64,000 bases of DNA from positions 32,001-96,000 of the forward strand of contig BTVV01000001.1 of assembly GCA_045863855.1 (NCBI GenBank), written 5' to 3'. The DNA comes from Planctomycetota bacterium (lineage in GTDB: Bacteria; Planctomycetota; SZUA-567; H5-PLA8). A program made the position numbers and the translations under genes. Below the pieces are notes generated by a model. The model saw only the letters and a list, made by a program, of their open reading frames with translations. It made no database searches and was not told where the DNA came from. Each line of letters starts with the position of its first letter. Within the stretch, counting starts at the first letter, position 1. This document shows, in pieces, positions 747-19,734 of the stretch.

Positions 747-1775
747 ATGGCCAAGCTGCGTGTCGGTTTGATCGGTTGCGGCGGACGCGGGCGCGCGCAT
801 GCGCGCGGATACGCCGCGGCGCCGGACGTCGAACTGGCCGCCTGCGCCGACCTGTATCCCGAAACCGCGCAAAAAGCCGCCGCCGAATTCAAGATCCCCA
901 AGACTTACACCGACTACAAGGAAATGCTCGAGCGCGAACGCCTCGACGTGGTCAGCATCGCGCTGTGGACGGGCCTGCATCACGAAGCGGTCCTCGCCTG
1001 CGTGAACGCTTCCAAGCCGCCCAAGCTGATCAACGCCGAGAAGCCCATGGCGCCGACGTTGGGCGCCGCTCGGAGCATGCACGAAGCCTGCGCCAAGGCC
1101 GGCATCGCGCTGACCTTTTGCCATCAGCGCCGGCTCGGCTCGACTTTCGCGAAAGCGCGCGAGTTTGCGCAGTCCGGCGCCATCGGCAGCCTGCGCCGCA
1201 TGGAAGGGTACTGCCCCAACCTCTTCGACTGGGGTACGCACTGGTTCGACATGCTCTTCTATTACAACGCGCAGACGCCCGTGGCATGGGTGATGGGGCA
1301 GATCGACGTGGCCGCCGACAAGAAGGTCTTCGGCACGCCGGTCGAGACCAGCGGCCTCTCGCTCTTCCGCTTCGTCAACGGCGTCGAGGGGCTGCTCGTC
1401 ACGGGCAGCGAAGCCGGCGCCGAACCGACTGGGACGCGCATCTACGGCAGCGCCGGGATCGTCGAAGCACGCGAGCATTCGCTGCGCATCCTGCGCGAAG
1501 GCCGGAGCTGGGAAGACGTGGACTGCGGGGATCTCAAGGCCGAGGCCGCGAACCCCACCACGCGCTACGTGCGGGAGACGCTGGGCAGCTTGCGCGAGTC
1601 GCAGGAGTCGCTCTTCAGCAGCCGCCAGTCGCTGATGGCCACCGAACTGATCTTCGCGACCTACGAATCGGCCCGCCGCCGCGCGAAAGTGACGCTCCCG
1701 CTCGGCACCGACGACTCGGCGCTCCTCACGATGCTCGAAAAGGGCGAGATCGTGGCGCCGAAGGCGCCGGTTTGA
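747..1775 (+). CDS. Gfo/Idh/MocA family oxidoreductase
   Basis: RVGLIGCGGRG Rossmann start, EKPMA, DWGTHWFD. Confidence 0.92.
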   Translation: MAKLRVGLIGCGGRGRAHARGYAAAPDVELAACADLYPETAQKAAAEFKIPKTYTDYKEMLERERLDVVSIALWTGLHHEAVLACVNASKPPKLINAEKPMAPTLGAARSMHEACAKAGIALTFCHQRRLGSTFAKAREFAQSGAIGSLRRMEGYCPNLFDWGTHWFDMLFYYNAQTPVAWVMGQIDVAADKKVFGTPVETSGLSLFRFVNGVEGLLVTGSEAGAEPTGTRIYGSAGIVEAREHSLRILREGRSWEDVDCGDLKAEAANPTTRYVRETLGSLRESQESLFSSRQSLMATELIFATYESARRRAKVTLPLGTDDSALLTMLEKGEIVAPKAPV

Positions 1776-1816
1776 GGGCGGCGAAAGAAGTTCGCGCCCG
1801 CGCGTAAGACGCCCGT

Positions 1817-2683
1817 ATGCAGGACGCGACCGATCCCGGCGCCAACCGGCGCCTTTCCCGCCGCCGCTTCCTAAAATGGACCGCCGGCGGCGTGCTGGGC
1901 GCCGGGCTGCTCGGTGGCGGCTATACGCTGCTCGAAGCCGGCTGGATCGAACTCACGCGCCCCACACTGCCGCTGCCCAACCTGCCCGCTCCGTTCGAAG
2001 GGCTCACCGTCGCGTTCCTGGCCGATCTTCACCACGGCCCGTGGACGGGCCTCGAGTACATCCGCGAGATCGTGCGGCGCACGAACGCGCTGGCGCCCGA
2101 CGTCATTCTGCTGGGCGGCGATTACGTCCACCAAGACCGGCGCTACATCGTTCCGTGCGCGGCCGAACTCGCCGCGCTTTCCGCGCCGCTGGGCATCTAT
2201 GGCGTGCTGGGCAATCACGATCATTGGGAAGGCGCGGCCGAGACGCGGGATGCTCTTAAAGCCGCGGGCGTCTCGCTGCTCGATAACGACGGCGTCTGGC
2301 TCCAACGCGGCGGCGCGCGGATGCGTTTGGGCGGCGTGGGCGATCTGTGGGAGGACGTCCAAGATCTCGACGCGGCCTTGGGCGATGCCACCTCCGGCGA
2401 CGCGTGCCTGGTCCTGAGCCACCATCCCGACTTCACCGAGACGCTGGCCGATCCGCGCGTCGGTTTGCTCCTGAGCGGCCACACGCATGGCGGCCAGGCT
2501 TACATACCCTTTTACGGCGCGCCCTTACTGCCCAGCCGCTACGGACAAAAATACCGCGCCGGATTCGTCCAAGGCCCGACCGCGCCGGTCTACGTCACGC
2601 GCGGGTTGGGCACGATCACGCCCCCGCTGCGCTTCGCCTGCCGCCCCGAGCTGGCCCTCCTCACCCTCCGCGCGAACGCCTGA
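1817..2683 (+). CDS. Metallophosphoesterase (YkuE/YaeI-like) with twin-arginine signal
   Basis: SRRRFLK; DLH, GGD, GNHD, SHHP, GHTHGGQ calcineurin-like motifs. Confidence 0.92.
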   Translation: MQDATDPGANRRLSRRRFLKWTAGGVLGAGLLGGGYTLLEAGWIELTRPTLPLPNLPAPFEGLTVAFLADLHHGPWTGLEYIREIVRRTNALAPDVILLGGDYVHQDRRYIVPCAAELAALSAPLGIYGVLGNHDHWEGAAETRDALKAAGVSLLDNDGVWLQRGGARMRLGGVGDLWEDVQDLDAALGDATSGDACLVLSHHPDFTETLADPRVGLLLSGHTHGGQAYIPFYGAPLLPSRYGQKYRAGFVQGPTAPVYVTRGLGTITPPLRFACRPELALLTLRANA

Positions 2684-2728
2684 ACCCCGGAAACATTCAC
2701 GGCTGACGGCGCGCGTGCGTCTTATACA

Positions 2729-4876
2729 ATGATGCGCATGCGCCTCCTCGCCTGGACCGGGCTCCTCGCCGCGCTGCTGGCCGCGCCGCTCGCGCGAGCC
2801 GAAGCGGCGGGCGAGGTCGTGCCCGCCGAGGGCCCCGCCGACGGCCGGCCCCAGGCCCTCCCGTACCTGGACGGCAAGCCGCTCGTCGGGCGCTGGGCCT
2901 GCCTCAGCGGACTCAACTCGCGCCCGGGCAAGAGCCCCATCGAACGCTACGAATGGCGGCAACTCAAAGGCCCCCCGCTGCGCTTCTTCGACGAGCAGCA
3001 GGAAAGCCCGCGCGTCTGGACCTTTCTCGAACGCCCCGGCGAGTACCACCTGATCCTGCGCGCGCGCAACGCCCAGGGCTGGTGCCCGTTCGTGGCCCTG
3101 GAATTTACCGTCACGCAGGACACACGCCCCGATCCAAGCCCCGATCTGCTGATGCCCATGGGCCTTGGCGAAAAGATCGCGCTCAGCGGCGAAGGCTGGA
3201 AGCAAGTCTACGGCGAACCGATCGAACAGCGCCGCGCGCCCGACGGCAGCGAGACCGTCGTGCGCCTGGTCAAGCCGGGGCTGTACCTCTTCGAGGCGCT
3301 CCACGCCGGCGATCTGCCCATGCGCCGCGGCTATCTGCTCCCGCCCGACAAGGACGGCTTGCTCGGCGACCGCCGCCCGCTCGCCAAACTCCCCGCCATC
3401 CAGACCGTCTCCGTCGGCCAGAAGTTCACGCTCGACGGTTCGCTCAGCCTCGATCCGGACGGCGACGCGCTCACCGCGCGCTGGCTGATGCCCGAGACCG
3501 AAGGCATGGAACTGCTCCACGAGAAAGAGCTGGCCGCGACCTTTTTTCCGCGCAAGGCAGGCTACTTCCGCGTGCAGCTCGTCGTCAGCGACGGGAAGCT
3601 CGACGCGGTGGGCGAATGCTACGTGACGGTGCAGGACGCGCCCGAAGGCGAACCCGAACCCGGTCCCGCCGCGCCGGCGCCGGCCGCGCCCGACCCGTGG
3701 CCGCGCGACACGACGGTGGGGCTCTTCGAGGCCGATCTCGACCGCGCCGTGCAGCTCTTCCCCAGCCGCGCCGGCGTGACGCTGCGCGTGGCCTCCGAGT
3801 TTCTCCCGCCCGAAAAGCTGAACACCGTTCCGCTGCATCTGGCCATCCGCAACGGACCCACGCGGCTGCTGCTGGACTGGATCGCGCGCCAGACCGGAGC
3901 GCCGTACGTGCTCGAGACGCCCACCGCCGTCTGGCTCACCAAGATCGGGCATACCGTCAACCCCGATCCGGTCTCCAACGTCGTCTTCGCCGCCGACGCG
4001 CTCTACGACGACGGGCAGGAAGCCGAGTTTCTGAACCTGCTGCGCCTCTGCTGCCGCGGAGCGCTGGGCGGTGGGCCCGAGACGAGCCTCACGCTGGAAC
4101 CCAAGTCCAAACGCATCATCGCTTTTTTGCCCAAGTCGGTGGCCGAACGCCTGAAGGAAGTGCTGCTGCATATGCGTACGCCCAAAGGGCTGGGCCTGCT
4201 CCCGCCGCCGCCTTTCGACGACGAAGAACGCTGGCTGCGCGCGCAGCTTGGCCTGCGCACGGTCAGCCTCGATTGGGAAGGCCGCCGGCTGGATCTGGCG
4301 CTGCGCGACCTGGCCGAACGCTCCGGCTTCGCGGTGGGCTTCGATCCGCGGCAGTTCGACTGCCTCAAGTTCACGCCCGACTACTTCGCGCGCAAGCTCC
4401 CCAAGCTGACGCTCAAGCGCGCGAACGTTCCGCTGCGCCAAGCCGTGCGCGATCTGTGCGAAGCCGCCGGCTTCGACGGCTGCCAGCCCGAACGCGGCGG
4501 CGGATTGTGGTTCTACAAGGGCAAGCCCCCGTATCCGTCGGGAGCCAGCCTGCGCGCGACGGCGCGCGTCGGGAGCTACGATCTGTCCGGGCTGCTGCCG
4601 CACTTTCCGCTGCTCAGCGGCGAGGCGATCGCGCACGAAGTCCGCCAGCGCGTCTACCCGGACAGTTGGGCCGATCCCTTTGTTGCGTGCGTGTACCACA
4701 AGGCGACCGAGAAGCTGATCGTCATCCACGGCCCCGAAGCGCTTGGGGGGGTCCTGCGCGGGCTGTACGACCTCGCGCTGCGCGGCGTGAACGGGCTGGG
4801 CCAGGCGCCGGAAGATTACGCGCGAAGCGCACCACTCATGTCGACAAAATGCCAAAATACCGACACGAATGCTTGA
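2729..4876 (+). CDS. Secreted multidomain protein with PKD-like and secretin-N/STN-like segments
   Basis: Signal peptide; LDGSLSLDPDGDALTARW...LVVSDG PKD-like; VSLDWEGRRLDLALRDLAERSG STN-like. Confidence 0.6.
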   Translation: MMRMRLLAWTGLLAALLAAPLARAEAAGEVVPAEGPADGRPQALPYLDGKPLVGRWACLSGLNSRPGKSPIERYEWRQLKGPPLRFFDEQQESPRVWTFLERPGEYHLILRARNAQGWCPFVALEFTVTQDTRPDPSPDLLMPMGLGEKIALSGEGWKQVYGEPIEQRRAPDGSETVVRLVKPGLYLFEALHAGDLPMRRGYLLPPDKDGLLGDRRPLAKLPAIQTVSVGQKFTLDGSLSLDPDGDALTARWLMPETEGMELLHEKELAATFFPRKAGYFRVQLVVSDGKLDAVGECYVTVQDAPEGEPEPGPAAPAPAAPDPWPRDTTVGLFEADLDRAVQLFPSRAGVTLRVASEFLPPEKLNTVPLHLAIRNGPTRLLLDWIARQTGAPYVLETPTAVWLTKIGHTVNPDPVSNVVFAADALYDDGQEAEFLNLLRLCCRGALGGGPETSLTLEPKSKRIIAFLPKSVAERLKEVLLHMRTPKGLGLLPPPPFDDEERWLRAQLGLRTVSLDWEGRRLDLALRDLAERSGFAVGFDPRQFDCLKFTPDYFARKLPKLTLKRANVPLRQAVRDLCEAAGFDGCQPERGGGLWFYKGKPPYPSGASLRATARVGSYDLSGLLPHFPLLSGEAIAHEVRQRVYPDSWADPFVACVYHKATEKLIVIHGPEALGGVLRGLYDLALRGVNGLGQAPEDYARSAPLMSTKCQNTDTNA

Positions 4877-5203
4877 CGCGTCGATGCCATCGACGTATGC
4901 GCGCCTCCGTCCCAGGATAGGAGTCTTTTACCTTCGAGCTGCCCTAAAGAGCGGGCGGCTAGGTAGCCCAAGCTCAAGCCGCCTTTTGGCGACTACGAAA
5001 CGCCTCCAGGGCAACATCCCCGGCCTTACCAGGCGCCCCCTCAATCGGAAAATGGAGTAGATCGTATAACCATATACAACAAAAGCACTTATTGAATCAC
5101 ATGCCACGAACGTGAATAGCCGTCATTGTTATTAACGAAATCGCTCATTTGCGATATTATGGAGATCGCTTATTATCGTTTGAGCAAAGTGGAGATGTAA
5201 GGC

Positions 5204-6406
5204 TTGAATATCAAGGAGTTTACAGACGCGGCCGCGGGGCGCTGCATCCGCACGCCTCGAGACTACTGGGCCTATGTGCCCAACCCGCTGCCGCCCGAAT
5301 TAACGTGGGACGCACGATTGGCGCAAGGGCTCACGGATGCTTCGTTGGCCTTGGGCGAACTGTCGGGTGCGGGGCGACTGCTGCCCAATCCGCATCTGTT
5401 AATGGCCTCGTATATCAAGCGCGAAGCGGTGCTAAGTTCGAGAATCGAGAACACGCAAGCCGGACTGAGCGATCTGTTTTTTTTCGAAGCCGAAAACGAG
5501 GAATCGCCGGTTATCCCGGATGTGCAAGAAGTGGCTCAATACGTTAAGGCGATGAACTATGGCTTGGCCCGCTTGCGGGACTTGCCCATTTCCAGTCGAT
5601 TGATACGGGAAATTCATAACGTACTCATGAGCGGCGTGCGAGACGGGCATCTGACGCCCGGGGAGTTTCGCACCTCACAAAACTGGATTGGACCGCCGGG
5701 CTGCACGCTCAACGAAGCCACCTACGTTCCTCCGCCTGTCGACGAAATGAACGAAGCGTTGAGCGCTTGGGAACGGTACGTGAACGCGCAGGACGCGCGT
5801 GAGCCGAACCTGATTCAATGCGCGCTTATGCATTACCAGTTCGAAGCCATTCACCCTTTCCTCGACGGGAACGGACGCGTGGGCCGTCTGCTGATTACGT
5901 TCTTTCTCTGCGAAAGGTGCTGCCTGTCTAAGCCGCTTTTGTATCTATCCGCCTACTTCGAACAACACAGGGACGAATACTACAAGCGTTTGCTCGAAGT
6001 AAGTCGAAGCGGAGACTGGGGCGGCTGGCTCAACTTTTTCCTTCGCGGAATCACGACCCAAGCCAGGGATGCGTTGGAGAACGCGAACCGGATTCTGGAA
6101 TTGCATGCGTCCTATCGAGCGCAATTGAGCGGCAAGCGCGTGCCCCGGGCGGCAGGACTGCTGGTGGACCATCTGTTTCAGAATCCTGTACTCTCCCTGG
6201 CGAAAACCGCGAAGGAATTGGATCTGACCTTTCCCACGCTTAAGCGCGGGGTGGACGAACTTCAGAAGCAAGGCATTCTTAAAGAGATCACCGGCAAGAA
6301 GCGCAACAGGCTCTTTGTGGCTCACAAGCTGATGCGCTTGCTCTTGCCCCCCGGCGACCGGGCCGGCACATGGGGTTCACCCAGGCGCGAACGCGGCACC
6401 GTGTAG
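5204..6406 (+). CDS. Fic family protein (Fic_N, Fic, C-terminal HTH)
   Basis: HPFLDGNGRVGR Fic motif; EAVLSSRIEN; TTG start after GGAG; lower GC than neighbours. Confidence 0.93.
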   Translation: MNIKEFTDAAAGRCIRTPRDYWAYVPNPLPPELTWDARLAQGLTDASLALGELSGAGRLLPNPHLLMASYIKREAVLSSRIENTQAGLSDLFFFEAENEESPVIPDVQEVAQYVKAMNYGLARLRDLPISSRLIREIHNVLMSGVRDGHLTPGEFRTSQNWIGPPGCTLNEATYVPPPVDEMNEALSAWERYVNAQDAREPNLIQCALMHYQFEAIHPFLDGNGRVGRLLITFFLCERCCLSKPLLYLSAYFEQHRDEYYKRLLEVSRSGDWGGWLNFFLRGITTQARDALENANRILELHASYRAQLSGKRVPRAAGLLVDHLFQNPVLSLAKTAKELDLTFPTLKRGVDELQKQGILKEITGKKRNRLFVAHKLMRLLLPPGDRAGTWGSPRRERGTV

Positions 6407-6446
6407 CCCATTTAACTCCCTGTACCATAACCCCTTAACCTCCCCG

Positions 6447-6475
6447 TTGCACTTTGCCATCCCTTCCCGTAACAT
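6447..6475 (+). promoter_or_regulatory. Putative sigma70 promoter of ispH
   Basis: TTGCAC-17 nt-TAACAT, ending 42 nt before the ispH ATG. Confidence 0.45.
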
Positions 6476-6517
6476 GTGCGCGCCAGATAACCTGGACCCA
6501 AGGAGTCCGCTTTCACC

Positions 6518-7831
6518 ATGGCCGATTACCATCGCAAGTACTTCGGGCTCAAGAAGGAAGTCGCTCCGGTCCTGGAAGGCACCTACGCCTCGCGCCTCGT
6601 GGACCTGCTCCGGCTCAAAGGCTACGAAGTCGCCTTCGGCGGACTCACCGTCAAGCTGGCCAAGGAATTCGGCTTCTGCGTCGGCGTCGAACGCTCGATC
6701 CAGATGGCCTACGAAACGCGCCGCATGTTCCCGCATAAGCGCATCTTCATCACCGCCGAGATCATCCACAACGCGTACGTCAACAAACAGCTCGTCGAGA
6801 TGGGCTGCATCTTCCTCAACGGCCAGTACAAGAACGGGAACTTCGAGAACATCACCGCCGACGACGTCGTGATCCTGCCCGCCTTCGGCGCCAGCGTCGA
6901 AGAGATCGAAGAGATCAAGAAGAAGGGCGCCTTCATCGTCGACAGCACCTGCGGCGCGGTGGTCAGCGTCTGGAACAACGTTCACCGCTATGCGAAGGAC
7001 GATTTCACGAGCCTGATTCACGGCAAATACAGCCACGAAGAAACCATCGCCACCGCCAGCCGCGCCACCGGCAAAGCCGATGGCTACACCGGCATCGACG
7101 TCGGCAAGCAGGGCAAGTACCTCATCGTCCGCGACATGGACGAAGCGAAGTACGTCTGCGAATACATCATCCGCGGCGGGAACCGCGACGAGTTCCTCAA
7201 GAAATTCAAGCACGGCACCAGCGTCGGCTTCGATCCCGACCGCGATCTCGAACGCATCGGCGTCGCCAACCAGACCACGATGCTCAGCAGCGAAACGCTG
7301 GCCATCCAGGGCGCCGTGCGCGCGGCCTTCGTCCAGAAGTACGGCGAAGCCGAAACGCAGCAGCGCGTGCGCAGCGCCGATACGATCTGCAGCGCCACGC
7401 AGGACCGCCAGGACGCCATGGGCGAGATGCTCCAGCGCCGCCGCCCCGACGTGATGATCGTCATCGGCGGCTACAACAGCTCGAACACGGGGCACCTCGC
7501 CGAGATGGGCATCGAGAAGGGCGTGCCCACCTACCACATCGACGACGGCACCTGCCTGATGAGCAAGAATCAGATCCGCCATCAGCCCATCGGCGCGAAG
7601 GAGAACGTCGTCACCGAGAACTGGTGGCCGCGCAGCGCCGAACCGCTGATCGGGATCACCGCCGGCGCGAGCACGCCGAACAACAAGATCGGCGATGTCT
7701 TCGTGCGGCTCTTCGAACTCAACGGCGCGGACCTCGACGAGATGATGGCCAGCGTCGAAGGACTGCCCACGCCGGAGCTGACCGAAGAAGAGAAGCGCAA
7801 GCTCGAACGCATGAAGATTCTGCACCACTAG
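6518..7831 (+). CDS. ispH: 4-hydroxy-3-methylbut-2-enyl diphosphate reductase
   Basis: FGFCVGVERS, EIIHN, DSTC, ANQTT, DTICSATQDRQ, GGYNSSNT, GITAGASTP. Confidence 0.97.
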   Translation: MADYHRKYFGLKKEVAPVLEGTYASRLVDLLRLKGYEVAFGGLTVKLAKEFGFCVGVERSIQMAYETRRMFPHKRIFITAEIIHNAYVNKQLVEMGCIFLNGQYKNGNFENITADDVVILPAFGASVEEIEEIKKKGAFIVDSTCGAVVSVWNNVHRYAKDDFTSLIHGKYSHEETIATASRATGKADGYTGIDVGKQGKYLIVRDMDEAKYVCEYIIRGGNRDEFLKKFKHGTSVGFDPDRDLERIGVANQTTMLSSETLAIQGAVRAAFVQKYGEAETQQRVRSADTICSATQDRQDAMGEMLQRRRPDVMIVIGGYNSSNTGHLAEMGIEKGVPTYHIDDGTCLMSKNQIRHQPIGAKENVVTENWWPRSAEPLIGITAGASTPNNKIGDVFVRLFELNGADLDEMMASVEGLPTPELTEEEKRKLERMKILHH

Positions 7832-7939
7832 TAGGCGCGCAATTCGAATCAGAAAAGCGATTTATGGAGACCCCGCGAGTGGCGCCACCGCCGCCCGTGG
7901 GGTTTTTCGTTTGCCGGAAACTGGAAACGCGGTTTGAGG

Positions 7940-8027
<88 letters not shown>

Positions 8028-8217
8028 GGCATGAGCGGCCATTTTCGCCGGAGCGCGCGGCAGTTCAAGCGAGCGCCGCAAGCGCCGGCGGCCCTCCGGC
8101 GCAAAATCCAAAATAAACGCTATCGTAGACGACGGCCATCTCGGCTCCCCGCAAGCACTTCCAGGGGGAACGCCAGACGCGAGCGTCTAAGATATAACAA
8201 AATATGCACCGAAATTC

Positions 8218-8246
8218 TTGATTACGTGAACATTGCCGAGTACACT
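8218..8246 (+). promoter_or_regulatory. Putative sigma70 promoter at the head of the phage-like cluster
   Basis: TTGATT-17 nt-TACACT in an AT-rich intergenic region. Confidence 0.45.
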
Positions 8247-8339
8247 AACGTATACTGAATATGAGCGCTAGCACATAGGGAAGCGGTCCAGATCGTCACC
8301 GGGTCGTCCGGCGCTCCAACTCCAATGCAGGGGGGAACC

Positions 8340-8600
8340 ATGCCTACCGTCCATACCTGGGGAGCGTCACGCCCGGCGCCGCCGCACGCGGAACCGGCGG
8401 CGTTCCTGCGTACGCCCGAAGTCGCCAGAAAGCTTGGAATATCCACGAAACGTGTACGCCTGCTGCTGCGTCAAGGCAAGCTCCCCGGTGTCCGCGTGGG
8501 CTCCGTCTGGTACGTGCCCCGCGAAGCCCTCGACGCCTTCCTCCGCCACCTCGTCGCCCAAGCGCAACACAACGTCATCAACCGCTTACAAGAGAAATGA
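8340..8600 (+). CDS. Excisionase-like helix-turn-helix DNA-binding protein
   Basis: FLRTPEVARKLGISTKRVRLLLRQGKLPGVRVGSVWYVP fits the HTH_17/Xis pattern. Confidence 0.85.
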   Translation: MPTVHTWGASRPAPPHAEPAAFLRTPEVARKLGISTKRVRLLLRQGKLPGVRVGSVWYVPREALDAFLRHLVAQAQHNVINRLQEK

Positions 8601-8674
8601 AACGCAGCGCCTCCCGCGCCCTTCCGCGTCATCGCATCCCGGTTCATGACCGTCTTGCTGGCAAAGGAAATCAA

Positions 8675-8977
8675 ATGATTCAGCTCCATACGAAAATCGA
8701 AAAGAAACTTTCCGGGGAGATGCTCCCGGAACTCGCAGCCGAATTTCGGCGCATCGCGAAGTGCTTGTGCAAAAAAGACCGCGCGATGCAGGAGGACTTA
8801 ATTCAGGAAATGGCGCTGGCGGCGTTATGCGTTCGCGGGGCGCACTCGTGGGGATACTACGTGCGTTTGGGGAGGTGGCGGGCGCGGGATTATCTGCGGC
8901 GCTTCGGGGCGCCGGCGGGCGGGACGTACGAGGACATCGAGCGGGCGCGGGATTTGGCGGCGGAACGGGAAGACTAG
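8675..8977 (+). CDS. Small sigma70 region-2-like protein (no region 4)
   Basis: QEDLIQEMALA...WRARDYLRR; RBS AAGGA before ATG 8675 (alternative start 8597). Confidence 0.6.
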   Translation: MIQLHTKIEKKLSGEMLPELAAEFRRIAKCLCKKDRAMQEDLIQEMALAALCVRGAHSWGYYVRLGRWRARDYLRRFGAPAGGTYEDIERARDLAAERED

Positions 8978-9092
8978 GCCGCGGCGGGCGCTTATCACGG
9001 AGCCAGACGCGCCGCGCTCTCCGCGCGGCCGGGCTTCGGCGGCGGCTACGCGGCAGCAACTCTATTTTTCGAGCATTCCGGGGGGAAATTCT

Positions 9093-9356
9093 GTGCTGGA
9101 GTCGGATCCTATCGCGGCGGCGGAGCGGCTGGTGCGCATCGAAGCTCAGCTCGATGCCCTGGTCTTGCTCACTTCGCGTTTGCACGGCGAGATGAAGGAG
9201 CAGCTCGATCTGGAGCGCCGGCGCTTCGAGGCGCTGGATGCGCGGGCGGGGGCTCTGGAGCGCGAGGCCGAGCGGACGCGGACGCACCTGGCTTGGATGA
9301 AGGGCGTCTGGGCGGCGGTGCAGGCTCCGATTCTGGCCTGGCTGGGCCTGAAATAG
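9093..9356 (+). CDS. Small coiled-coil protein with C-terminal hydrophobic helix (XhlA/holin-associated-like)
   Basis: ERLVRIEAQLD coiled coil then WMKGVWAAVQAPILAWLGLK. Confidence 0.55.
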   Translation: MLESDPIAAAERLVRIEAQLDALVLLTSRLHGEMKEQLDLERRRFEALDARAGALEREAERTRTHLAWMKGVWAAVQAPILAWLGLK

Positions 9357-9486
9357 TTTCGCCGCGCGCCGGATCTTCCCGCGGCCCGCGGAGCGATGTC
9401 ACGCCGGCGGCTGGAGCGCGGCTCTCTCTCTTTTCGAATGGGCGCACCCTGTTCACGGTGGATTCTTTTTTCATAGGAGGCCTTTC

Positions 9487-9699
9487 ATGCGTGCATTTCT
9501 GGGCAAATTGGGCGGGCGGAAGTTCATTCTCGCGGTCTTCGGCGCGATCGCGGTGGGCTTGAACGGACTCTTGGGACTCGACGAGGCGAGCATCCTGGCG
9601 CTGGGCGGGATCGTCGCGACGTACTTGATGGGGCAGGGGATCGCCGACGGACTTTCGGGCGGCTTCACGTCGACGACGGAGGATGCGAAGGAGAAGTAG
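9487..9699 (+). CDS. Putative holin (2 TM helices)
   Basis: AGGAGG RBS; GRKF, two hydrophobic helices, GQGIAD, charged tail. Confidence 0.65.
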   Translation: MRAFLGKLGGRKFILAVFGAIAVGLNGLLGLDEASILALGGIVATYLMGQGIADGLSGGFTSTTEDAKEK

Positions 9700-9767
9700 G
9701 CGATTGGAGTGCGGACTGAAGAACAGAGCGCGGCATTGAGGTTGCGCTTCGCGCGGCTTGTCCTGTT

Positions 9768-9800
9768 CACCTCCCCTACCCCTCCTTGGCAAGGAGGGGA
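9768..9800. repeat. REP-like family A copy (CACCTCCCCT.C.CCTCCTTGGCAAGGAGGGGA)
   Basis: Palindromic core CCTCCTTG-G-CAAGGAGG; other copies at ~21439, 22692, 22772, 33245. Confidence 0.85.
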
Positions 9801-9862
9801 AACGGCCGAGCGCGCTTCGCGCGGTCTATCTGGCAAACGGTGTGGCGAGAGGGTCGGGCACG

Positions 9863-10471
9863 CTAACGGCGCGCGAGGCCGCTGAGTTCGGCGAGGTCTT
9901 CGACGGTGCGGTGAAGTTCGGCGACGAGCGGCGATTCGCCGTGGCTGCGGTAGGCATCGACGAGCGAACGGTAGTACCAAAGCGTGCCGTCGCGGCCGCC
10001 GTTGAAACGATCCCAAAGCATATCGCCGATCACGTGGTAATCGGCGCGGAGGTCGCGCGCGTTGGCGAGCTTGTCGCAGGCGCTGACGAGGCGGACGGAA
10101 GGCGAGGCGGTGCGGACGTGAGCGATGTAGCGTTCCTTGCGTTCGCGCCAGGGCGGCTTGGGTTCGGTGTCGGCGTCGGTGCAGCCGACGACGATGGCCG
10201 CGACGGCGGGCCCGTATTCGCGTTCGATCTCGGCGACACGCGGCTTGCCGCCGCAGTCTTCGACGATGTCGTGGAGAAGTCCGGCGATGACTTCGTCCTC
10301 GTTGCCGCCGTGTTCCATGACCAGCGCCGCGACGGTCATCAGGTGCGAGAGGTATGCGACTTCCTTGCCTTTGCGTTTGTGGTGGCCGTGACAGCGATGG
10401 GCGTCGAGGAAGGCGTTTTCGAAGCGTGGCGAGTAGTAGGGGAGGGGCGCTTTGTCGGGGTGGGGGCGCAT
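9863..10471 (-). CDS. Standalone RelA/SpoT-type HD hydrolase (small alarmone hydrolase/Mesh1-like)
   Basis: KRKGKEVAYLSH, LLHDIVED, DKLAN motifs of the HD_4 family. Confidence 0.85.
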   Translation of the reverse strand: MRPHPDKAPLPYYSPRFENAFLDAHRCHGHHKRKGKEVAYLSHLMTVAALVMEHGGNEDEVIAGLLHDIVEDCGGKPRVAEIEREYGPAVAAIVVGCTDADTEPKPPWRERKERYIAHVRTASPSVRLVSACDKLANARDLRADYHVIGDMLWDRFNGGRDGTLWYYRSLVDAYRSHGESPLVAELHRTVEDLAELSGLARR

Positions 10472-10538
10472 GGAGTGGGCCTCGGAGTGGAAAGTGGAGC
10501 GTAAAAGGTGAGGTACGAAACTTCAAAAAGCAAAAAGC

Positions 10539-10636
10539 AATGAGTAATAAGGGCGTTGCGGTGGGCTGTTCGGCCGCACTACGCGCGTAGCACCTTACGC
10601 ATCGCGTCTCGCGTCGTACGCCGTTCATTACTCATT
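10539..10636. repeat. Imperfect inverted repeat element
   Basis: AATGAGTAAT..GGCGT at the left pairs with ACGCC..ATTACTCATT at the right. Confidence 0.6.
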
Positions 10637-10680
10637 AAATTTTCACCGTTCACCGCAGCGCATCATCAAGGAAGCACCGC

Positions 10681-10977
10681 ATGTCTTGGGGACCGTTTTT
10701 AAGTCTGCTGCTGCGCGCTCTGCCGGACGTGCTGTTCTTGTGCCGGCGGCGGGCGGAGCGATCGGATCGGGAGGAGTTGCATGCAAGCGAACAGACGTTC
10801 CGCGTGGCGCTGGCTCGCGGGGATCTCGATACTGCTTCTGTGTTGCTGGAGCGGCGGTTGCGGGAAGCGCGCCGTCTACGTCACGGGCGGGCACCGCATC
10901 GTGAAGCTGCAGAAGGGGCAGCCGGCGCCGGAGCGGGGCGTGTGGATGAGCGAGGAGTACCTGGCGGAGATTCATGA
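10681..10977 (+). CDS. Putative inner-membrane spanin-like protein
   Basis: AAGGAAG RBS; hydrophobic N-terminus then helical segment; overlapped by a lipoprotein ORF. Confidence 0.45.
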   Translation: MSWGPFLSLLLRALPDVLFLCRRRAERSDREELHASEQTFRVALARGDLDTASVLLERRLREARRLRHGRAPHREAAEGAAGAGAGRVDERGVPGGDS

Positions 10978-11002
10978 AGCGCTGGGGCGGGAAGGGCAAT
11001 AA
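10781..11002 (+). CDS. Small lipoprotein, putative outer-membrane spanin (Rz1-like)
   Basis: GGAGGAG RBS; signal ending SGG-C; lies in the +1 frame overlapping the preceding ORF. Confidence 0.55.
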   Translation: MQANRRSAWRWLAGISILLLCCWSGGCGKRAVYVTGGHRIVKLQKGQPAPERGVWMSEEYLAEIHEALGREGQ

Positions 11003-11091
11003 GTAGAAGCAATGGACTCCATTCGGCGGGCGCAGGCGGGCGAACGTTCTGCATCGGCCCGATTTGCACTTTGAATCGAAAGGCTTTTCGC

Positions 11092-11358
11092 ATGGCCAAA
11101 ACGAAAGCGCTGCCGCTGGCGCCTTTGGCGCGGCATTCGACGGACGAATTGCTGGACGAGCTGGAGCGGCGGTCGCTGGGGTGCTTGGTGGTTTCGCTGC
11201 GGGTGGAGGAGCCGAACGCGGACGCGTGGCGTTACCGGATCAAGGGCTCGAACGTGCTGCTGGGGGCGATGAGCGCGGCGCTGACGGTGCGCATGCATTG
11301 CGTACTGACCGAGCGGGCGGAGTGGAACGACGATCCGTTCGCGGGGAGCGTGGTGTAG
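11092..11358 (+). CDS. Hypothetical phage-like protein
   Basis: STDELLDELERR; codon style matches the cluster. Confidence 0.6.
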   Translation: MAKTKALPLAPLARHSTDELLDELERRSLGCLVVSLRVEEPNADAWRYRIKGSNVLLGAMSAALTVRMHCVLTERAEWNDDPFAGSVV

Positions 11359-11370
11359 GGGCTGGATTCA

Positions 11371-11438
11371 CCGCGGAGGCGCGGAGGACGCAGAGAAGGG
11401 CCACGAATTTCACCACGGAGCGCACAGAGCACACGGAG
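11371..11438. repeat. Left boundary repeats of the cassette block (33 bp inverted arm plus 31 bp direct arm)
   Basis: 11371-11403 is inverted versus 13152-13184 (3 mismatches); 11408-11438 is identical to 13070-13100. Confidence 0.85.
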
Positions 11439-11696
11439 AAGGGCAGGGCAAACTGGAGACGGCGGGGTTTGGGTTGCGCTGAAGGTTCGATTGCAGCGAC
11501 ACGTTATTCATCCTGCGCATGCCTCGCATTACCGCATTTCGGCGGTCAGGCCGCGGGGATGAGTCATTTAGGATAAAGAAAGTCATGAGGTTAAGTAACT
11601 GGAGCTTTGACGGTCCGATGCAATTTAGGTAGAAGCGCGTACAAGATAGGCCGCACGAATGAGGTCGAATACAGAGTTAGGCACCTACGAGCGCAT

Positions 11697-11996
11697 ATGG
11701 CACTCATGAAATGCAGAGGGTGTCAGAGCAAGTTTGCAGTTGGATTCATGCCAACCGCCACCTGCGGACTGCTCATCATTCCCGCATTCGTGATTACGCT
11801 GATGGCGTCCTTTGTCATTTGGCGTTTTGTGACTTGGTGGGCACTGGTTCTTTCCATTCCTGCCTTCTTTCTCGCTTTGCTCGGAGTCCACTTCATCCCG
11901 TGGACTTGCGAGTATTTGTTTACGTTCTGGCGTCGTTGCCCGCGATGCGGACAGCGCCGATGGTCGTATCCATTTACTGAAGGGTTTGGATTATGA
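11697..11996 (+). CDS. Cassette ORF 1: small membrane protein with CxxC motifs at both ends
   Basis: CRGC, two TM helices, CPRC; low GC; preceded by core site GTTAGGC at 11676. Confidence 0.65.
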   Translation: MALMKCRGCQSKFAVGFMPTATCGLLIIPAFVITLMASFVIWRFVTWWALVLSIPAFFLALLGVHFIPWTCEYLFTFWRRCPRCGQRRWSYPFTEGFGL

Positions 11997-12006
11997 GTCA
12001 CACGAT

Positions 12007-12106
12007 GGCTAATCATGCGCTGTAACGAACTTGGCATGACGTGGCGGCTTCCGGTATCTTCAAGCTCTGTCTCGGCGGGCCGGGCAGGTGAGCTTGGTCG
12101 TTCGGC
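12007..12106 (+). other. Degenerate integron attC site
   Basis: GGCTAAT-CATGCGCTG ... GTGAGCTTGGTC-GTTCGGC; right end is similar to the next attC. Confidence 0.55.
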
Positions 12107-12124
12107 GGCAGAAGGGGGTTTCCC

Positions 12125-12610
12125 GTGAGTCGAAGATTGTTTCTTATGCTGGCGATGGCTGCGAGCGTGACGTGTCTCCCTGCGGCCGCCGCTGATCCCG
12201 ATCCGGCTGTATCGCTGCTCCTGCACAAAGTTGCAGCCGAGCGTTTGGAGAAGGACATCCACTTCCGGTGCGAGGTGACTCTCGACAACGGCACCGGCCG
12301 CGACCTGGCCGTGCGGTCGAACTTCAGCTCGGTCTTCGACGGGCTGGAGGTCGTCGTGACCGACCCGAAGGGCAAGGTTCTGGTGCAGCGGGGGTACACG
12401 ATCCACCAGTCGCCGTTCGCCCCGCCGGGCCGTGTGTTCCCCCTCAAGCAGGGTCAGACGGCGGGTACGTTGGTGTTCCCCATCCACGATTTGCCGGCCG
12501 ATGCGCGGACGCTCAAGGTCCGCTTGGTGGGTACACTGCCGGGGAGCGGTTTCGAGCGGATTTTGTCGTCGGAGACGCTGGAGGTCACGGTCACGGCGCG
12601 TGACCAGTGA
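12125..12610 (+). CDS. Cassette ORF 2: secreted hypothetical protein
   Basis: Signal peptide (..LPAAAA-D), beta-rich mature part; bounded by GTTCGGCG and CGCCGAAC. Confidence 0.75.
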   Translation: MSRRLFLMLAMAASVTCLPAAAADPDPAVSLLLHKVAAERLEKDIHFRCEVTLDNGTGRDLAVRSNFSSVFDGLEVVVTDPKGKVLVQRGYTIHQSPFAPPGRVFPLKQGQTAGTLVFPIHDLPADARTLKVRLVGTLPGSGFERILSSETLEVTVTARDQ

Positions 12611-12623
12611 GGAGCAAAGGCAC

Positions 12624-12720
12624 GCCGAACCAAGCGCTGCAGCAGACGGCGGGGGCATGACGGCTTTCCAAGGGTTGAAGTCTCTGCAGCCGGTCCCGCT
12701 GCTGAACTCGATCGTTCGGC
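12624..12720 (+). other. Integron attC site
   Basis: GCCGAAC-CAAGCGCTGCAGCAGAC ... GCTGCTGAACTCGATC-GTTCGGC; 97 bp with complementary core ends and inner CAGCAG/CTGCTG pairing. Confidence 0.75.
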
Positions 12721-12735
12721 GGAAGTTGCGCGTAT

Positions 12736-13011
12736 ATGACAAACAAGAGACAGACTCCCTGGCGTCGTAGATTGACCAAAGTGCTCATCACCATCGGTCC
12801 GGTTACGGTGCTAGCAGGCATTGCTCTCCAGACTCCCGCTCTTACTGGATTCGCGTTGCTGCTTTGCTTTCTGGCGGTGGCCTTCGGCAAGTACACCGTT
12901 GTGTGTGCCAAGTGTGGGAAGAAGTATCATGCGATTGGCGTGGAGGTACTCTGCTGTTACAGCTGTGGCGCACCTTACTTTGAGGAGGCAGAGAAACATG
13001 ATGCTGTCTAA
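12736..13011 (+). CDS. Cassette ORF 3: small membrane protein with C-terminal zinc ribbon
   Basis: Two TM helices, CAKC..CYSC; stop TAA lies inside the inverse core GTCTAAC. Confidence 0.7.
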   Translation: MTNKRQTPWRRRLTKVLITIGPVTVLAGIALQTPALTGFALLLCFLAVAFGKYTVVCAKCGKKYHAIGVEVLCCYSCGAPYFEEAEKHDAV

Positions 13012-13069
13012 CCGGATCACTGCACACAAGGCTGGATAGCCGCCTCAGTTCCGCTTCGCGGTCCACGGC
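13006..13069 (+). other. Truncated attC (left half), cut at the boundary repeat
   Basis: GTCTAAC...TGCAC followed by attC-like sequence that runs directly into the 31 bp direct repeat. Confidence 0.45.
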
Positions 13070-13189
13070 TTTCACCACGGAGCGCACAGAGCACACGGAG
13101 CAGGGCAACGGCGTGCACTTTGGTTTGGAAGTCGTTACCTTTCCTGCGATTTGGCCCTTCTCGGCGTGCTCCGCGCCTCGGCGGCGAGA

Positions 13190-13990
13190 TCATCCTTCGA
13201 TCTCGAGTTCGGCGAGGACGGGGTAGTGGTCGCTGGGGTAGAGCGGGGGTTCGGCGTCGCGGACGATATGGCAGGTCTTGGCGCGGACGCGGGCGGTCCC
13301 ATCCTTATACAGAATCCAGTCGATGCGGCCGTGGTGGGGTTTGTTCAGGCGCGTGCCGGTAAACCCGTGGAAGGTGTAGATCTCGGGGCCGTCGGGTTGC
13401 CCGGTCTCGACATGCGCGTCGCGGTAACCGGCGGCGCGAAAGACTTCGTAGGGTTCTTCGCCGGGATCGGTGTTGAAGTCTCCGGTGATCAGCGTGAAGC
13501 CCGCGCCCGGGCTTAATTCGGCCAATTTTTTAACGATCAATTTCGCGCCTTCGATACGCGCCCATTGGCTCATGTGGTCCAGATGCGTATTGAGGTGCCA
13601 GCCTTCGAGGCCGCCGGCGAGCCGCAGCTTGAGCGCGAGGGCGGAGCGGATGCAGTTGGTGTCCCACGAGGCGCTGTGGCAATCGGGGGTTTCGCTGAGC
13701 CAGAAGGCTTTGGAGTCGAGGACTTCGACCGCGCCGGGTCGCCAGGCGGCGGAGGTGTAGCAGAAGGGATCGCGGTTGTTGTAATGCGGCCCGCGTTCGA
13801 TGCGGTGGGCGTTCCAGCCGCGCGCGTAGTGGTCGAGATTGCCGGTCTGGACTTCCTGAAAACCGACGAGATCGGGATCGAGTTTCTTGAGCGTGGCGAC
13901 GTTGAGCTCGGCTCGCGCGGGCCAGACGTTGGCTCCGTCGTTCACGAAACTTCCGCGCAAATTAAAGGTGACCACGCGCAGGGCAGGCAT
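13190..13990 (-). CDS. Endonuclease/exonuclease/phosphatase family protein
   Basis: TFNLR, GFQEV, NTHLDH, GDFN, RIDWI, SDHYPV. Confidence 0.93.
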   Translation of the reverse strand: MPALRVVTFNLRGSFVNDGANVWPARAELNVATLKKLDPDLVGFQEVQTGNLDHYARGWNAHRIERGPHYNNRDPFCYTSAAWRPGAVEVLDSKAFWLSETPDCHSASWDTNCIRSALALKLRLAGGLEGWHLNTHLDHMSQWARIEGAKLIVKKLAELSPGAGFTLITGDFNTDPGEEPYEVFRAAGYRDAHVETGQPDGPEIYTFHGFTGTRLNKPHHGRIDWILYKDGTARVRAKTCHIVRDAEPPLYPSDHYPVLAELEIEG

Positions 13991-14087
13991 GAGGGGAACT
14001 CCAGGTGTGCGGGGGAGCATAGCGGATCGATTTTGGATTTTCGATTTCCGATTTTGGAGAGGGGCGCCTGGCCAAGGGGGCGAATTC

Positions 14088-14279
14088 GTGACGCTCACGT
14101 TCTGCTCGATGCAGCGCAATCCGATACGCAAAGCAGCTCCGGCGTACTGCCGTTCGTGCAAGCGGACGGTGCAGGCGGTGCGGGCGTCGGCTCGGGATAC
14201 GCTGCGCTGCCGGGTGTGCGGAGGCGGAGTGATCGTCTCGCGGATGGTGGCGCGGAGTTTGGGGCTGCTGACCTTTTAG
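14088..14279 (+). CDS. Small basic zinc-ribbon protein
   Basis: CRSC-x17-CRVC; directly upstream of the terminase; start GTG 14088 or ATG 14109. Confidence 0.55.
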   Translation: MTLTFCSMQRNPIRKAAPAYCRSCKRTVQAVRASARDTLRCRVCGGGVIVSRMVARSLGLLTF

Positions 14280-14315
14280 GCATTGGATGTTGGACATCGG
14301 TTCTTGGGATTGCGC

Positions 14316-15662
14316 ATGGCGATGCAGGAAGCGGCGGCGGGCGGGGCGGGGTCGGATGCGCTGAAGGTTTTTACGCCGGACCGGCTGCATGCGGCTCAGC
14401 GGGCGATCCATGCGCATCCGGCGCGGATCCGGGTGGCGGCGTGCGGGCGGCGCTTCGGGAAGACGACGCTGGGCCTGGTGGAGGCGGTGCAGACGGCGTT
14501 GCAGAAGCCGAACGCGCTGGTCTGGTGGGTGAGCGCGGCGAAGGAGCAGGCGAAGCGGCACGCGTGGAAGCTGAAGCGCGAACTGGACTGCGCGCACGAG
14601 AAGAACGGAAAGCACCGCAGCGACCGGATCGAATTTCGGAACGGATCGGTGCTGGAATTCCTGAGCGCGCTGAGCGGCGACCGGCTGCGCGGGGAGGGGC
14701 TGGACTTTTTGGTGATCGACGAGGCGGCAGACGTTCCGGAGGAGGTCTGGACGAGCGTGCTGCGGCCGGCGCTGGTGGACCGGCGGGGGCGCGCGCTGAT
14801 TCTGGGCACGCCGCGGGGGCGCGGGAACTGGCTGCACCGGCTGTATCTGCAGGGGCAGGACCCGGCGCTGGAGGCGGAGCTTCGCGCGTTCCGTTTCCCG
14901 ACGCTGGAGAATCCGAAGATCAAGGAGGAGGAGCTGGAGAGCACGCGGACCATCATGACGGCTTTAGAATTCAAGCAGGAATTCGAGGCCGAATTCGTGA
15001 ACGGTTCGGGGAAGGTCTTCGGCGACGTGCGGGCTCTGGCGACCTGCGAGAAGCGGGCGGTGGGGCGCGAACACGCGCGGTACTTCACCGGGATCGACCT
15101 GGCGCGCAGCGGCGATTACACGGTGCTGGTGAGTTTGCGCGCGCCGGACCCGGAGGTGTCGAGCGTGCTGCCGCCGGCGGCGCGGATGGAAGGCTACCAC
15201 CGCATGCGCGGGCTGCCTTGGGACGAGCAGCTCCGCGCGATCAAGGATCATCTGCGGCGATTTCCGGGGCCGTGCGTCGTCGACGCGACGGGGCTGGGCG
15301 ATCCGGTGGCCGAACGGATCCGGGCGTTTCATCCCGATACCGAGGCGTACCATTTTTCGAGCGTGCGGAAGCAGAACCTGGTCCGCGGGCTGCTGCTCGG
15401 TTTCGACCTGAAGCGGCTGTATCTGCTGCCGGAGGAGACGCTGCTGAGCGAACTGGAGAGTTTCGAGGCCGAAGAGCCGTCGCATTGGTCGCGCGGGCGC
15501 GCCCCCAAATACGGCGCTCCGGCCGGGCAGCACGACGACACGGTGATCGCGCTGGGCCTGGCGTGGTGGGGGTTGTGCCAGCGCGAGGGGATGCCGGGGA
15601 TCGACGAGGCGGGGTTGAAGGCGGCGGGGCGGATGTTCCGGTTTGGGTTCTTCGCGCGATGA
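14316..15662 (+). CDS. Phage terminase large subunit
   Basis: GRRFGKT Walker A, LVIDEAA Walker B, GTPRG, GIDLA..D and HDDTVIAL nuclease motifs. Confidence 0.95.
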   Translation: MAMQEAAAGGAGSDALKVFTPDRLHAAQRAIHAHPARIRVAACGRRFGKTTLGLVEAVQTALQKPNALVWWVSAAKEQAKRHAWKLKRELDCAHEKNGKHRSDRIEFRNGSVLEFLSALSGDRLRGEGLDFLVIDEAADVPEEVWTSVLRPALVDRRGRALILGTPRGRGNWLHRLYLQGQDPALEAELRAFRFPTLENPKIKEEELESTRTIMTALEFKQEFEAEFVNGSGKVFGDVRALATCEKRAVGREHARYFTGIDLARSGDYTVLVSLRAPDPEVSSVLPPAARMEGYHRMRGLPWDEQLRAIKDHLRRFPGPCVVDATGLGDPVAERIRAFHPDTEAYHFSSVRKQNLVRGLLLGFDLKRLYLLPEETLLSELESFEAEEPSHWSRGRAPKYGAPAGQHDDTVIALGLAWWGLCQREGMPGIDEAGLKAAGRMFRFGFFAR

Positions 15663-15835
15663 GGGCGTGAAAGGCACAGGTACTAAGGGCGCGGCACGGC
15701 AGCTTGCGGGCGCTTAGGCGGCGATGCGGCCGTGCCTACGCTTCAGCTTTCCCCGCGCTGCGGGCGAGACGGCCGCGATACGAACGGCCCGTTCGCGCAT
15801 CGGGTTTCAGCCGGCCCTTCGCATAAGGAAATCGC

Positions 15836-17284: not shown

Positions 17285-17311
17285 CGCGCGGCGTGGTCAT
17301 AGGAGGCGAGC

Positions 17312-17812
17312 ATGAACGAGCATGACGAGACGGGAGCGAACGATCCGGCGCCGGATCCGCCGGCGGAGGTGGAGGCGTTGCGGAACGAGTTGGAGGCGCT
17401 GCGGGCTCGGGCGGAGGCGGCGGAGCGCGAGAGGGCGATCCGCAAAGCGTTGGCGGAGGCGGCGTGGTTCGAGCCGGAGGACGCGTACCGGGTGCTGAGC
17501 GAACGCGCGGAGCGTTCGAGCGACGGAGCGTGGCGCGTGGCGCTGGCGGAGGGCGACGGGAAACCGGGAGCGTGGCTGAGTCCTGCGGAGGCGGCGCGGG
17601 AGCTGGCGCGGCGCAAGCCGCACTGGGTGCGCGCGCGCGTGACGCCGGGGACGGGCGCGGGGGCCGGCGAAGCGACCGGCGGCGGGGGCGCTCGCGGACC
17701 GTTAACGTATTCCGAGCTGCTGAAGCCTGAAAATGCGGCTCGGCTTCGTGAATTCGTGCACGACCGGCCGCAGGAATTGGAGCGCTTGCGGGCGGCGCAT
17801 TTCGGCGGCTAA
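17312..17812 (+). CDS. Putative capsid scaffolding protein
   Basis: Acidic coiled coil, Gly-rich linker, located between portal and capsid; AGGAGG RBS. Confidence 0.7.
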   Translation: MNEHDETGANDPAPDPPAEVEALRNELEALRARAEAAERERAIRKALAEAAWFEPEDAYRVLSERAERSSDGAWRVALAEGDGKPGAWLSPAEAARELARRKPHWVRARVTPGTGAGAGEATGGGGARGPLTYSELLKPENAARLREFVHDRPQELERLRAAHFGG

Positions 17813-18967: not shown

Positions 18968-18980
18968 GGGCAAGCCGGGG

Positions 18981-19691: not shown

Positions 19692-19734
19692 CGAGGTATT
19701 CTACCACAAAATGCATAGGTAAAAGGGAAACGCG

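Follow-up and report, generated by a model that had tools for sequence, protein, structure and literature searches.

The window analysed here is a stretch of 64,000 nucleotides (G000:C1:32001-96000) from the assembly of an uncultured planctomycete (G000; 6.93 Mb in 287 contigs), and it was compared with two congeneric genomes (G001 and G002, the latter ~92% identical to G000), with other members of its family (17 genomes in all), and with a complete genome of the same class (G025), which served as control and was sampled at 20 stretches. Near the left end of the window begins a cluster of phage-type genes (Table 1), the first two of which (8340-8977) encode an HTH_17 protein and a protein that resembles region 2 of sigma-70 and no other part of it. 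The latter is kept in four genera at 40-55% identity, and the two proteins together are possibly a two-part sigma factor for the cluster. The same gene order was found in four genera, and the capsid gene is present at 76-99% identity in 10 of 16 family genomes, two more having a 34% identical paralog alone. Between G000 and L003, 26 of the 35 differences in this one gene fall at third positions and 3 of 343 residues differ; the capsid gene appears to be under purifying selection. Neither an integrase nor a replication gene nor a phage helicase was found by Pfam or PHROGs in the scanned ORFs of the cluster, and none of the 18 matches of the genome to the tyrosine integrase family PF00589 lies on contig C1. 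With its head and packaging genes, its lack of an integrase or replication module and its conservation across the family, the cluster looks like a GTA, and to judge from its genes it is a candidate GTA in Planctomycetota, a phylum for which our literature search found no description of one. The neighbouring tRNA-Leu(TAG) gene was not seen in the loci of the other genera.

Several family members have a paralogous cluster type with a capsid 32-35% identical to that of the window (L089, L143 and L179; in G002:C2 it lies near 1,364,814), and a gene similar to the sigma-like one is found in the paralogous cluster at L089. A second, unrelated terS-terL-head module is present at L136 (G001:C1:830001-850000), with no integrase in that stretch and no homologs in G000. 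Further right in the window (54444-56632), a DUF692/MbnB-type modification enzyme, a DUF2063 partner and a small upstream protein likely form a RiPP locus.

Table 1. Features of the window, in window coordinates
Feature	Position	Strand	Remarks
Weak opposite arm	747..8600	-	-0.13 to -0.46 per gene; Fic gene +0.10
tRNA-Leu(TAG)	7940..8024	-	Beside the cluster in G000 and G001
A+T-rich spacer	8181..8280	+	60% A+T; sigma-70-like promoter match at 8,227-8,256 (9/12; 0.3 expected)
GTA-like operon	8340..30598	+	Regulatory genes, genes for small membrane proteins and lipoproteins, head genes, putative tail genes; host-type genes on the minus strand lie in between
Excisionase-like HTH_17 protein, 86 aa	8340..8600	+	First cluster gene; PF12728 (E 6e-13), TIGR01764, phrog_66
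Skew change point	8634..8837	.	Best estimate 8,758; maximum likelihood on raw G/C, 2-log-unit interval; falls in the 5' half of the ORF for the sigma-like protein
100-aa protein resembling sigma-70 region 2 alone	8675..8977	+	Putative function; no family over its bar
Hairpin with T-rich tail	8710..8731	-	Resembles a terminator of leftward RNA; coincides with the G-C walk minimum (8,713)
Strong arm, G+T-rich + strand	8758..64000	+	Silent-site skew from ~+0.55 to ~+0.2; spans the cluster and host genes of both orientations
Repeat family A	9746..9815	+	Oriented, intergenic
Terminase large subunit	14316..15662	+	PF03237, phrog_2
Repeat family B	15743..15803	+	Centre 15,773; ends approximate
Portal protein	15836..17284	+	phrog_145
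Head scaffold	17312..17812	+	phrog_206
Major capsid protein	17936..18967	+	PF20036, phrog_247
Repeat family A	21431..21491	+	Centre 21,461; ends approximate
Repeat family A	22790..22850	+	Centre 22,820; ends approximate
Repeat family C	25173..25233	+	Centre 25,203; ends approximate; C/A-rich on the G/T-rich strand
Repeat family A	33233..33293	+	Centre 33,263; ends approximate
Repeat family C	40741..40801	+	Centre 40,771; ends approximate
Repeat family B	61615..61675	+	Centre 61,645; ends approximate

The skew flip at the left edge of the cluster

At the left edge of the cluster the + strand switches sharply from C to G, and the 8-kb skew step of 0.221 at the change point was reached by none of 2000 shuffles of 1-kb blocks. 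An earlier sequence-only reading had reported this switch from hand counts of G and C on five 60-nt lines, all of which proved exact, and from codon preferences that differ between genes as it had said (GCC/GCG 26/8 in ispH, 1/41 in the capsid gene and 16/109 in dnaE). The C excess that it saw on the left is present, but the lines it had shown were extremes: raw skew over 1-8,712 is only -0.051 (C exceeds G in 61% of 145 60-nt lines), whereas over 8,713-56,000 it is +0.176 (G exceeds C in 83% of 788 lines), and the flip is therefore lopsided. At silent sites the skew is -0.14 left of the flip and +0.52 right of it, with a decay over ~70 kb; the fading that had been placed near 60 kb does occur, but values of +0.16 to +0.38 persist at 60-68 kb and zero is reached at ~70-79 kb, past the end of the window. 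Minus-strand genes within 9.8-33.6 kb show the same + strand skew (0.43-0.64) as plus-strand genes, so the effect is strand-based and independent of gene direction, a minus-strand gene at 33,984 (-0.04) being an exception right of the flip. This gene (33984-34982, unknown) and that of a Fic protein (5204-6406) have low GC3 and lack the local skew, which is consistent with their being recent arrivals. On the G-rich strand T is in excess as well, and GAG is preferred to GAA (0.61 vs 0.29, in codons outside the training-gene selection); a keto (G+T) pattern is the usual leading-strand signature.

The A+T-rich spacer noted earlier was found as described, and so was the want of a DnaA-box cluster, just two boxes with a single mismatch to the consensus being present in 7.8-9.5 kb. 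The hairpin at the minimum of the G-C walk is identical in G002, and none was seen in the G001 alignment.

The flip is neither a rearrangement junction nor an assembly join, as had also been considered: independent contigs, those of other runs included, span it without differences (X1, possibly from the source run, over 8,184-9,795; X4 over 7,962-9,797; X2 over 5,970-8,866), and G002 is collinear with G000 across it. In G001 the flip is kept at the cluster edge although its neighbours differ on both sides, and although the cluster copy there is without portal, scaffold and capsid N-terminus. The flip is two-sided in G001, and its change point lies ~500 bases further right, past the sigma-like gene, and hence its position is not constant to the nucleotide. 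The cluster-edge flip is the largest up-jump in the contiguous 800 kb examined from each congener (0.77 and 0.54); these findings support the origin-type polarity and the local, element-linked source first proposed. For the read-depth check suggested near 8.7 kb, contig depth served as a coarse measure (one figure per contig, uninduced cells), and it has neither step nor peak at the flip in four of four runs over 1-20 kb.

Strain differences common to several runs were seen at window 4743-4819 and 19055-19219, and they include ten substitutions unlike the window in all four runs where covered. Left of the window, G000:C1:23667-28178 contains 26 tRNA genes in an array, all in one orientation (27 in G002). 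A rightward arm of G000, and likewise one of G001, drops where it runs head-on into the edge of this array, as if the array were a polar barrier to the arm.

Genome-wide jumps, positional bias and oriented repeats

Jumps of at least 0.4 were scored on four-fold sites, and a codon-likelihood track was used as a second scoring. In G000, 31 up-jumps stand against 10 down-jumps on four-fold sites (p 0.0015) and 18 against 4 on the codon track, and the flip ranks fourth and second, respectively, among the up-jumps. The flip is one of ~20-30 such sites in the chromosome and among the strongest. The sequence-only reading had named equally frequent flips elsewhere as grounds for doubt; many others do exist in the genome, and the flip itself is nevertheless real. 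When the arms are stacked, the strong side falls linearly from +0.42 to 0 over ~35 kb, the weak side being -0.07 to -0.13, and independent two-fold sites give +0.11 and ~0.

Parts of nine relatives were compared for this saw-tooth. It is visible in 400 kb of G002 (jumps near 2,453, 2,557, 2,600 and 2,710 kb), and the skewness of increments is +0.9 in G000, +1.16 in G002 and +0.35 in G001. G001 is much rearranged in comparison with G000; up-jumps there are about as many as down-jumps (6:6 at 0.4 or more, 17:19 at 0.3 or more), and its saw-tooth has little asymmetry. At the ends of orthologous genes, the sizes of jumps in G000 and G001 are correlated (rho 0.24-0.28, n=333). Stretches of 100 kb from each of G007 and G011 show almost no skew pattern, and G010 is flat or noisy outside the cluster and the sequence just before it. 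Of 23 distinct relatives (25 rows, from which two near-duplicates were dropped), 16 have cluster capsid genes with a G-rich sense strand, so the link between skew and cluster is common but not constant.

The bias is imposed by position and is still acting. Skews of orthologs correlate at r 0.99 between G000 and G002 (n=231) and at 0.39 between G000 and G001 (n=131). In G001, the + strand skew of five host genes that lie behind the cluster is 0.52-0.75, whereas their G000 orthologs, located elsewhere, have |skew| 0.01-0.33. At the ends of a 410-kb inversion between G000 and G002, silent-site G/C differences follow the new neighbours (150:82, p 1e-5; 46:87, p 5e-4), and silent-site drift is balanced on 8 collinear contigs. 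C-G exchanges amount to 54 per 1000 sites in arms vs 41 outside; total silent divergence is flat against skew (rho -0.02, n=430), and a raised mutation rate in the arms was rejected because no rise of total divergence was seen.

Short intergenic repeats are oriented with the skew, and all eight copies in the window are in + sense. Eighteen seed groups were screened, nine of which reached 80% concordance (among those below it: 20/38, 11/20, 11/16, 8/11, 7/10, 7/11 and 22/28), and five families were carried on, their signs being fixed after a first look. In G000, 132 of 140 copies of these five are oriented with local skew (34/34, 26/26, 28/31, 23/27 and 21/22); the near-palindromic seed of family A is concordant in 26 of 45 cases, the 34/34 referring to its whole element. 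Repeats of the congeners do the same (13/13 in G002, 15/17 in G001), and where local skew and the dnaN replichore conflict in them, local skew wins 10:1. With f as the measure of local skew for repeat density and orientation bins, occupancy of gene junctions by repeats rises 17-fold, from 10 of 1400 (0.7%) at |f|<0.1 to 43 of 346 (12.4%) at |f|>0.4, and repeats agree with skew in 114 of 117 cases at |f|>0.1, including 16 of 16 at |f| 0.1-0.2. Their orientation is independent of gene direction (33/36 and 40/42). The repeats are young, since 10 of 13 testable copies are missing from the orthologous site of G002, and their orientation is no by-product of mutation, as family C is C/A-rich on the G/T-rich strand. 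As a cause of the jumps they were rejected, the skew being equal on both of their flanks (+0.36, +0.36) and the repeats being younger than the skew. By analogy with known mobile elements, they may report single-stranded DNA on one strand. The genome contains two Y1-type transposase genes (PF01797 matches), and Y1/RAYT-like transposase genes lie at up-jumps at G000:C13:56532-57194 and L134:9775-10191 (one per genome; the label at L134 was given by eye).

What lies at the jumps was searched in several ways. No shared motif was found in 39 up-jump regions by all-against-all BLAST and enrichment of 8-, 10- and 12-mers, which returned words at chance level, the top three scattered through genes. 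A+T-rich patches occur near up-jumps (p 1e-4), yet only 10 of 100 such patches carry a jump of +0.3 or more. tRNA genes are no general cause (strong up-jumps at 4 of ~30 scored loci), and neither are HTH_17 genes or integrases (16 and 18 matches, by eye unclustered at jumps) or parS (one up-jump with three sites, the remaining sites dispersed and their orientation 15/30). The one parS case, G000:C2:9734-11360 (also L028 and L148), combines three parS with parB at an up-jump, and its strong arm points toward dnaN in both congeners; further exact parS copies occur dispersed on other contigs. Loss of RNase HI, RecG, DnaG, DnaB or DnaA was rejected as a trigger, all of them being present, and a first impression that contig ends are skewed outward did not hold (65 vs 52 of 310).

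Replichores and the source of the bias

In the control, two replichores are evident: dnaA/dnaN are bracketed by the C-to-G switch, and the G-rich strand carries 180 of 277 genes. This switch, together with the T-richness and GAG preference of the G-rich strand at the flip, speaks against the earlier suggestion that the flip is a terminus with inverted skew. Replichore-scale tests of skew and gene bias in the congeners used sampled stretches, 800 kb of G001 C1 and 800 kb of G002 C1. The 2.76-Mb G001 contig, sampled at 40 stretches, shows no replichore step about dnaA and none about dnaN (272 of 547 genes), and no skew jump was found at dnaN in G002. There is a faint replichore signal in raw skew (0.010 and 0.028); the KOPS motif was no replichore marker, its z of 2.8 being no higher than that of permuted words. 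The sole large inversion found between G000 and G002 is that of 410 kb (ends 2,465.6 and 2,876.0 kb), and its centre lies ~1 kb from dnaN, upstream of which degenerate boxes and an A+T-rich run are found (G000:C20:66150-66856; G002:C1:2,671,951; 560 kb from dnaA in G002). Because of the inversion centred on dnaN, the origin-like upstream region and the faint replichore signal, a working oriC is likely at the dnaN locus, from which ordinary replication probably continues, nearly skew-silent. That the flip itself is oriC, one of the options first raised, is scarcely conceivable: polarity and the A+T-rich spacer would fit, but dnaN lies 115 kb and dnaA 675 kb from the orthologous flip in G002 (in G000 both are on contigs other than that of the flip), there is no DnaA-box cluster, ~30 similar jumps exist, and the arm fades in 70 kb and is gone within 79 kb. 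In G002 the sequence at the end of contig C24 of G000 continues into that of the start of the same contig, within the dnaA region (DnaA boxes at C24:66,100-66,450), suggesting a permuted or mis-looped contig.

At the flip, a polar tract begins at a site that is fixed; its bias peaks at this site, wanes over tens of kb, and governs how young mobile repeats are oriented and how densely they lie. We give a probability of roughly 0.4 to the reading that this reflects supplementary DNA synthesis that starts at fixed sites and runs mostly one way, on top of an oriC that leaves next to no skew. Such synthesis, of run-off or strand-displacement type, would start at A+T-rich non-oriC sites in surviving cells and would repeatedly leave single-stranded the strand that runs 5'-to-3' away from the site; trends of C-to-T and A-to-G suggest that this is the exposed strand, and oxidative G-to-C damage on the other strand may be an alternative source of the signature. 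The flip site, in the regulatory head of a domesticated phage-head operon, is perhaps a start that was kept from a phage. The same strand geometry would result from a fork that departs from an origin, from strand displacement at a nick, from an R-loop and from headfuls taken up 3'-first. The excess of up-jumps in both scorings, the gradient of repeat density and the skew of relocated genes were counted for extra synthesis; the lack of a shared motif, of the rise in divergence that an added mutagenic process might bring and of a peak in contig depth, the equality of jumps in G001 and the G-rich capsid sense strands in just 16 of 23 relatives were counted against it. The only candidate initiator enzyme found, a weak one, is a stand-alone fusion of a DnaG-like Toprim domain and a DnaB-like helicase (G000:C55:35268-37793; L150:7268-9793, minus), which lies among host genes, ordinary dnaG and dnaB being elsewhere. 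It is present in 5 of 29 genomes, in genera g1 and g3 only, and is in pieces in the G001 assembly; as initiator it is no more than a lead, since its own locus has no jump and its carriers G004 and G012 show no clear saw-tooth in small samples of 55 and 35 kb.

A chromosome with true multiple origins, i.e., dozens of fixed, partly efficient bidirectional origins with variable termination and N-shaped domains, oriC being at most first among many, is a rather doubtful alternative. It would account for the want of Mb-scale skew and gene bias in the G001 contig as compared with the control, for dnaN without a jump and for the two-sided flip in G001, and the strong arms in G002 mostly point away from dnaN/parB, as would be expected of origins that fire partially against a passive background; multiple origins are in use in cyanobacteria whose skew is irregular (PMC7198777). 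Genes on the locally G-rich strand make up 57% at |f|>=0.2 (n=1591; 142 of 229 in G002), and this mild co-orientation, together with the flat total divergence, pulls back toward multiple origins, but the co-orientation is absent in G001 (66 of 134) and nonsignificant by gene runs at |f|>=0.3 (p 0.5), the dnaN-centred inversion suggests forks leaving one point, and dnaA, recG and RNase HI are all present. Multiple origins alone predict a flat repeat density and mixed orientation at low skew, as opposed to the 17-fold rise and the full concordance at |f| 0.1-0.2; because the repeats are neither evenly spread nor mixed at low skew, an extra one-way process is favoured over plain multi-origin replication. 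In a further alternative, gradients of transfer, a terminase, or a nicking enzyme like that of conjugation, would work one way from fixed sites, and one defined single strand would enter recipients, mutate and take up repeats there with a frequency falling with distance. From what is generally held about the mechanisms, a headful series with 3'-first uptake, or a 5'-first T-strand, would give the same polarity; the flip heads a terminase operon, the terS-terL module at L136 also opens a G-rich-sense tract, ~2 kb upstream of terS, the arms are lopsided, and D. shibae GTA packaging has seven motif-less peaks (accessible text of PMC5786225). We nevertheless regard transfer as unlikely: it would need to contribute more substitutions than replication does, comEC is present, but in the control too, the paralogous cluster has C-rich sense strands in three of three loci, the prophage on C67 has no skew, the decay of the arms is smooth rather than stepwise, most up-jumps are without a phage gene, and the G001 cluster keeps its flip without portal and scaffold.

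Two further explanations were weighed. Long read-through transcription or R-loops from strong promoters, exposing the non-template strand, would suit an arm that runs with a late operon behind a promoter-like spacer and a sigma-like gene, as well as the A+T-rich patches near up-jumps and the regulator genes often seen, by eye, beside them. This is very unlikely, however, as the gene-intrinsic sense effect is -0.004 +/- 0.003, the strong arm at other jumps runs with or against the adjacent gene about equally (by eye), and the orientation of the repeats is blind to gene direction. Still less probable, and largely refuted, is a patchwork of inversions of an ancestral two-replichore skew, with the flip as an old breakpoint: one up-jump and one down-jump of G000 are indeed the ends of an inversion, and the shuffled G001 has equal counts of both, but inversions give equal up and down steps, unlike the 31:10 of G000, and the flip survives new neighbours, relocated genes gain skew and young repeats follow it.

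Comparison with known systems

Single-origin replication is near dogma for bacteria. We put at about even odds the broader proposition that this lineage moved much, or a large supplementary part, of its DNA synthesis to dozens of fixed non-oriC sites, one of them phage-domesticated with a GTA, so that a eukaryote-like saw-tooth, with repeats as its compass, would exist while dnaA and an oriC-like locus persist. In human skew N-domains, which are megabase-sized, sharp up-jumps are joined by gradual declines; the jumps and declines are alike in G000 and G002 and only weakly so in G001, but here they occur in a bacterium, over 50-110 kb and lopsided. No report of a bacterial saw-tooth with locally oriented repeats was found in a search of openly accessible article texts, and none is described in the accessible text of PMC11040001, 10.1101/808410 and 10.1101/2023.11.21.568195; the exceptions to a single origin in the accessible literature are experimental cyanobacterial cases and, in Bartonella, a single run-off origin of phage descent. 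The polar sites, dozens of which can be mapped, offer exact, testable coordinates for non-oriC initiation or strand exposure, and the oriented repeats are a marker independent of base composition. Checks of assemblies by GC skew and estimates of growth rate from origin-to-terminus ratios can fail in this family.

Cyanobacteria, according to the accessible text of PMC7198777, have DnaA-independent multi-origin replication with irregular skew and asynchronous initiation. The present genome is like them in having dnaA with no V-shaped GC or gene skew, and differs from them, as there described, in fixed sites with silent-site skew of +/-0.6, in oriented repeats, and in an oriC-like locus with a dnaN-centred inversion. 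In D. shibae, GTA packaging begins at several motif-less chromosomal starts with coverage falling with distance; the accessible text of PMC5786225 gives two-sided packaging peaks, a normal skew-defined origin and terminus and no mutational scar, unlike the situation in G000.

The sequence-only reading had compared the flip with the run-off origin of Bartonella, where replication coupled to BaGTA starts from one origin at a Twinkle-like helicase gene and ~461 kb are amplified both ways (PMC2697382; its accessible text does not mention skew). The likeness lies in a start outside oriC among genes of phage origin, in an influence on host genes that weakens with distance, and in a linked, conserved GTA-like cluster; the differences are that there is no helicase at the site, that there are dozens of sites, most of them without phage genes, that the arms are lopsided and of 30-70 kb, and that contig depth shows no amplification. 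The flip is therefore Bartonella-like in kind, but fails on the helicase gene and on singleness. IS200/IS605 elements insert on the lagging-strand template (accessible text of PMC5027513), and they and REP/RAYT are likewise mobile elements whose orientation reports strand asymmetry; those cases follow two replichores, whereas the repeats of G000 follow local tracts.
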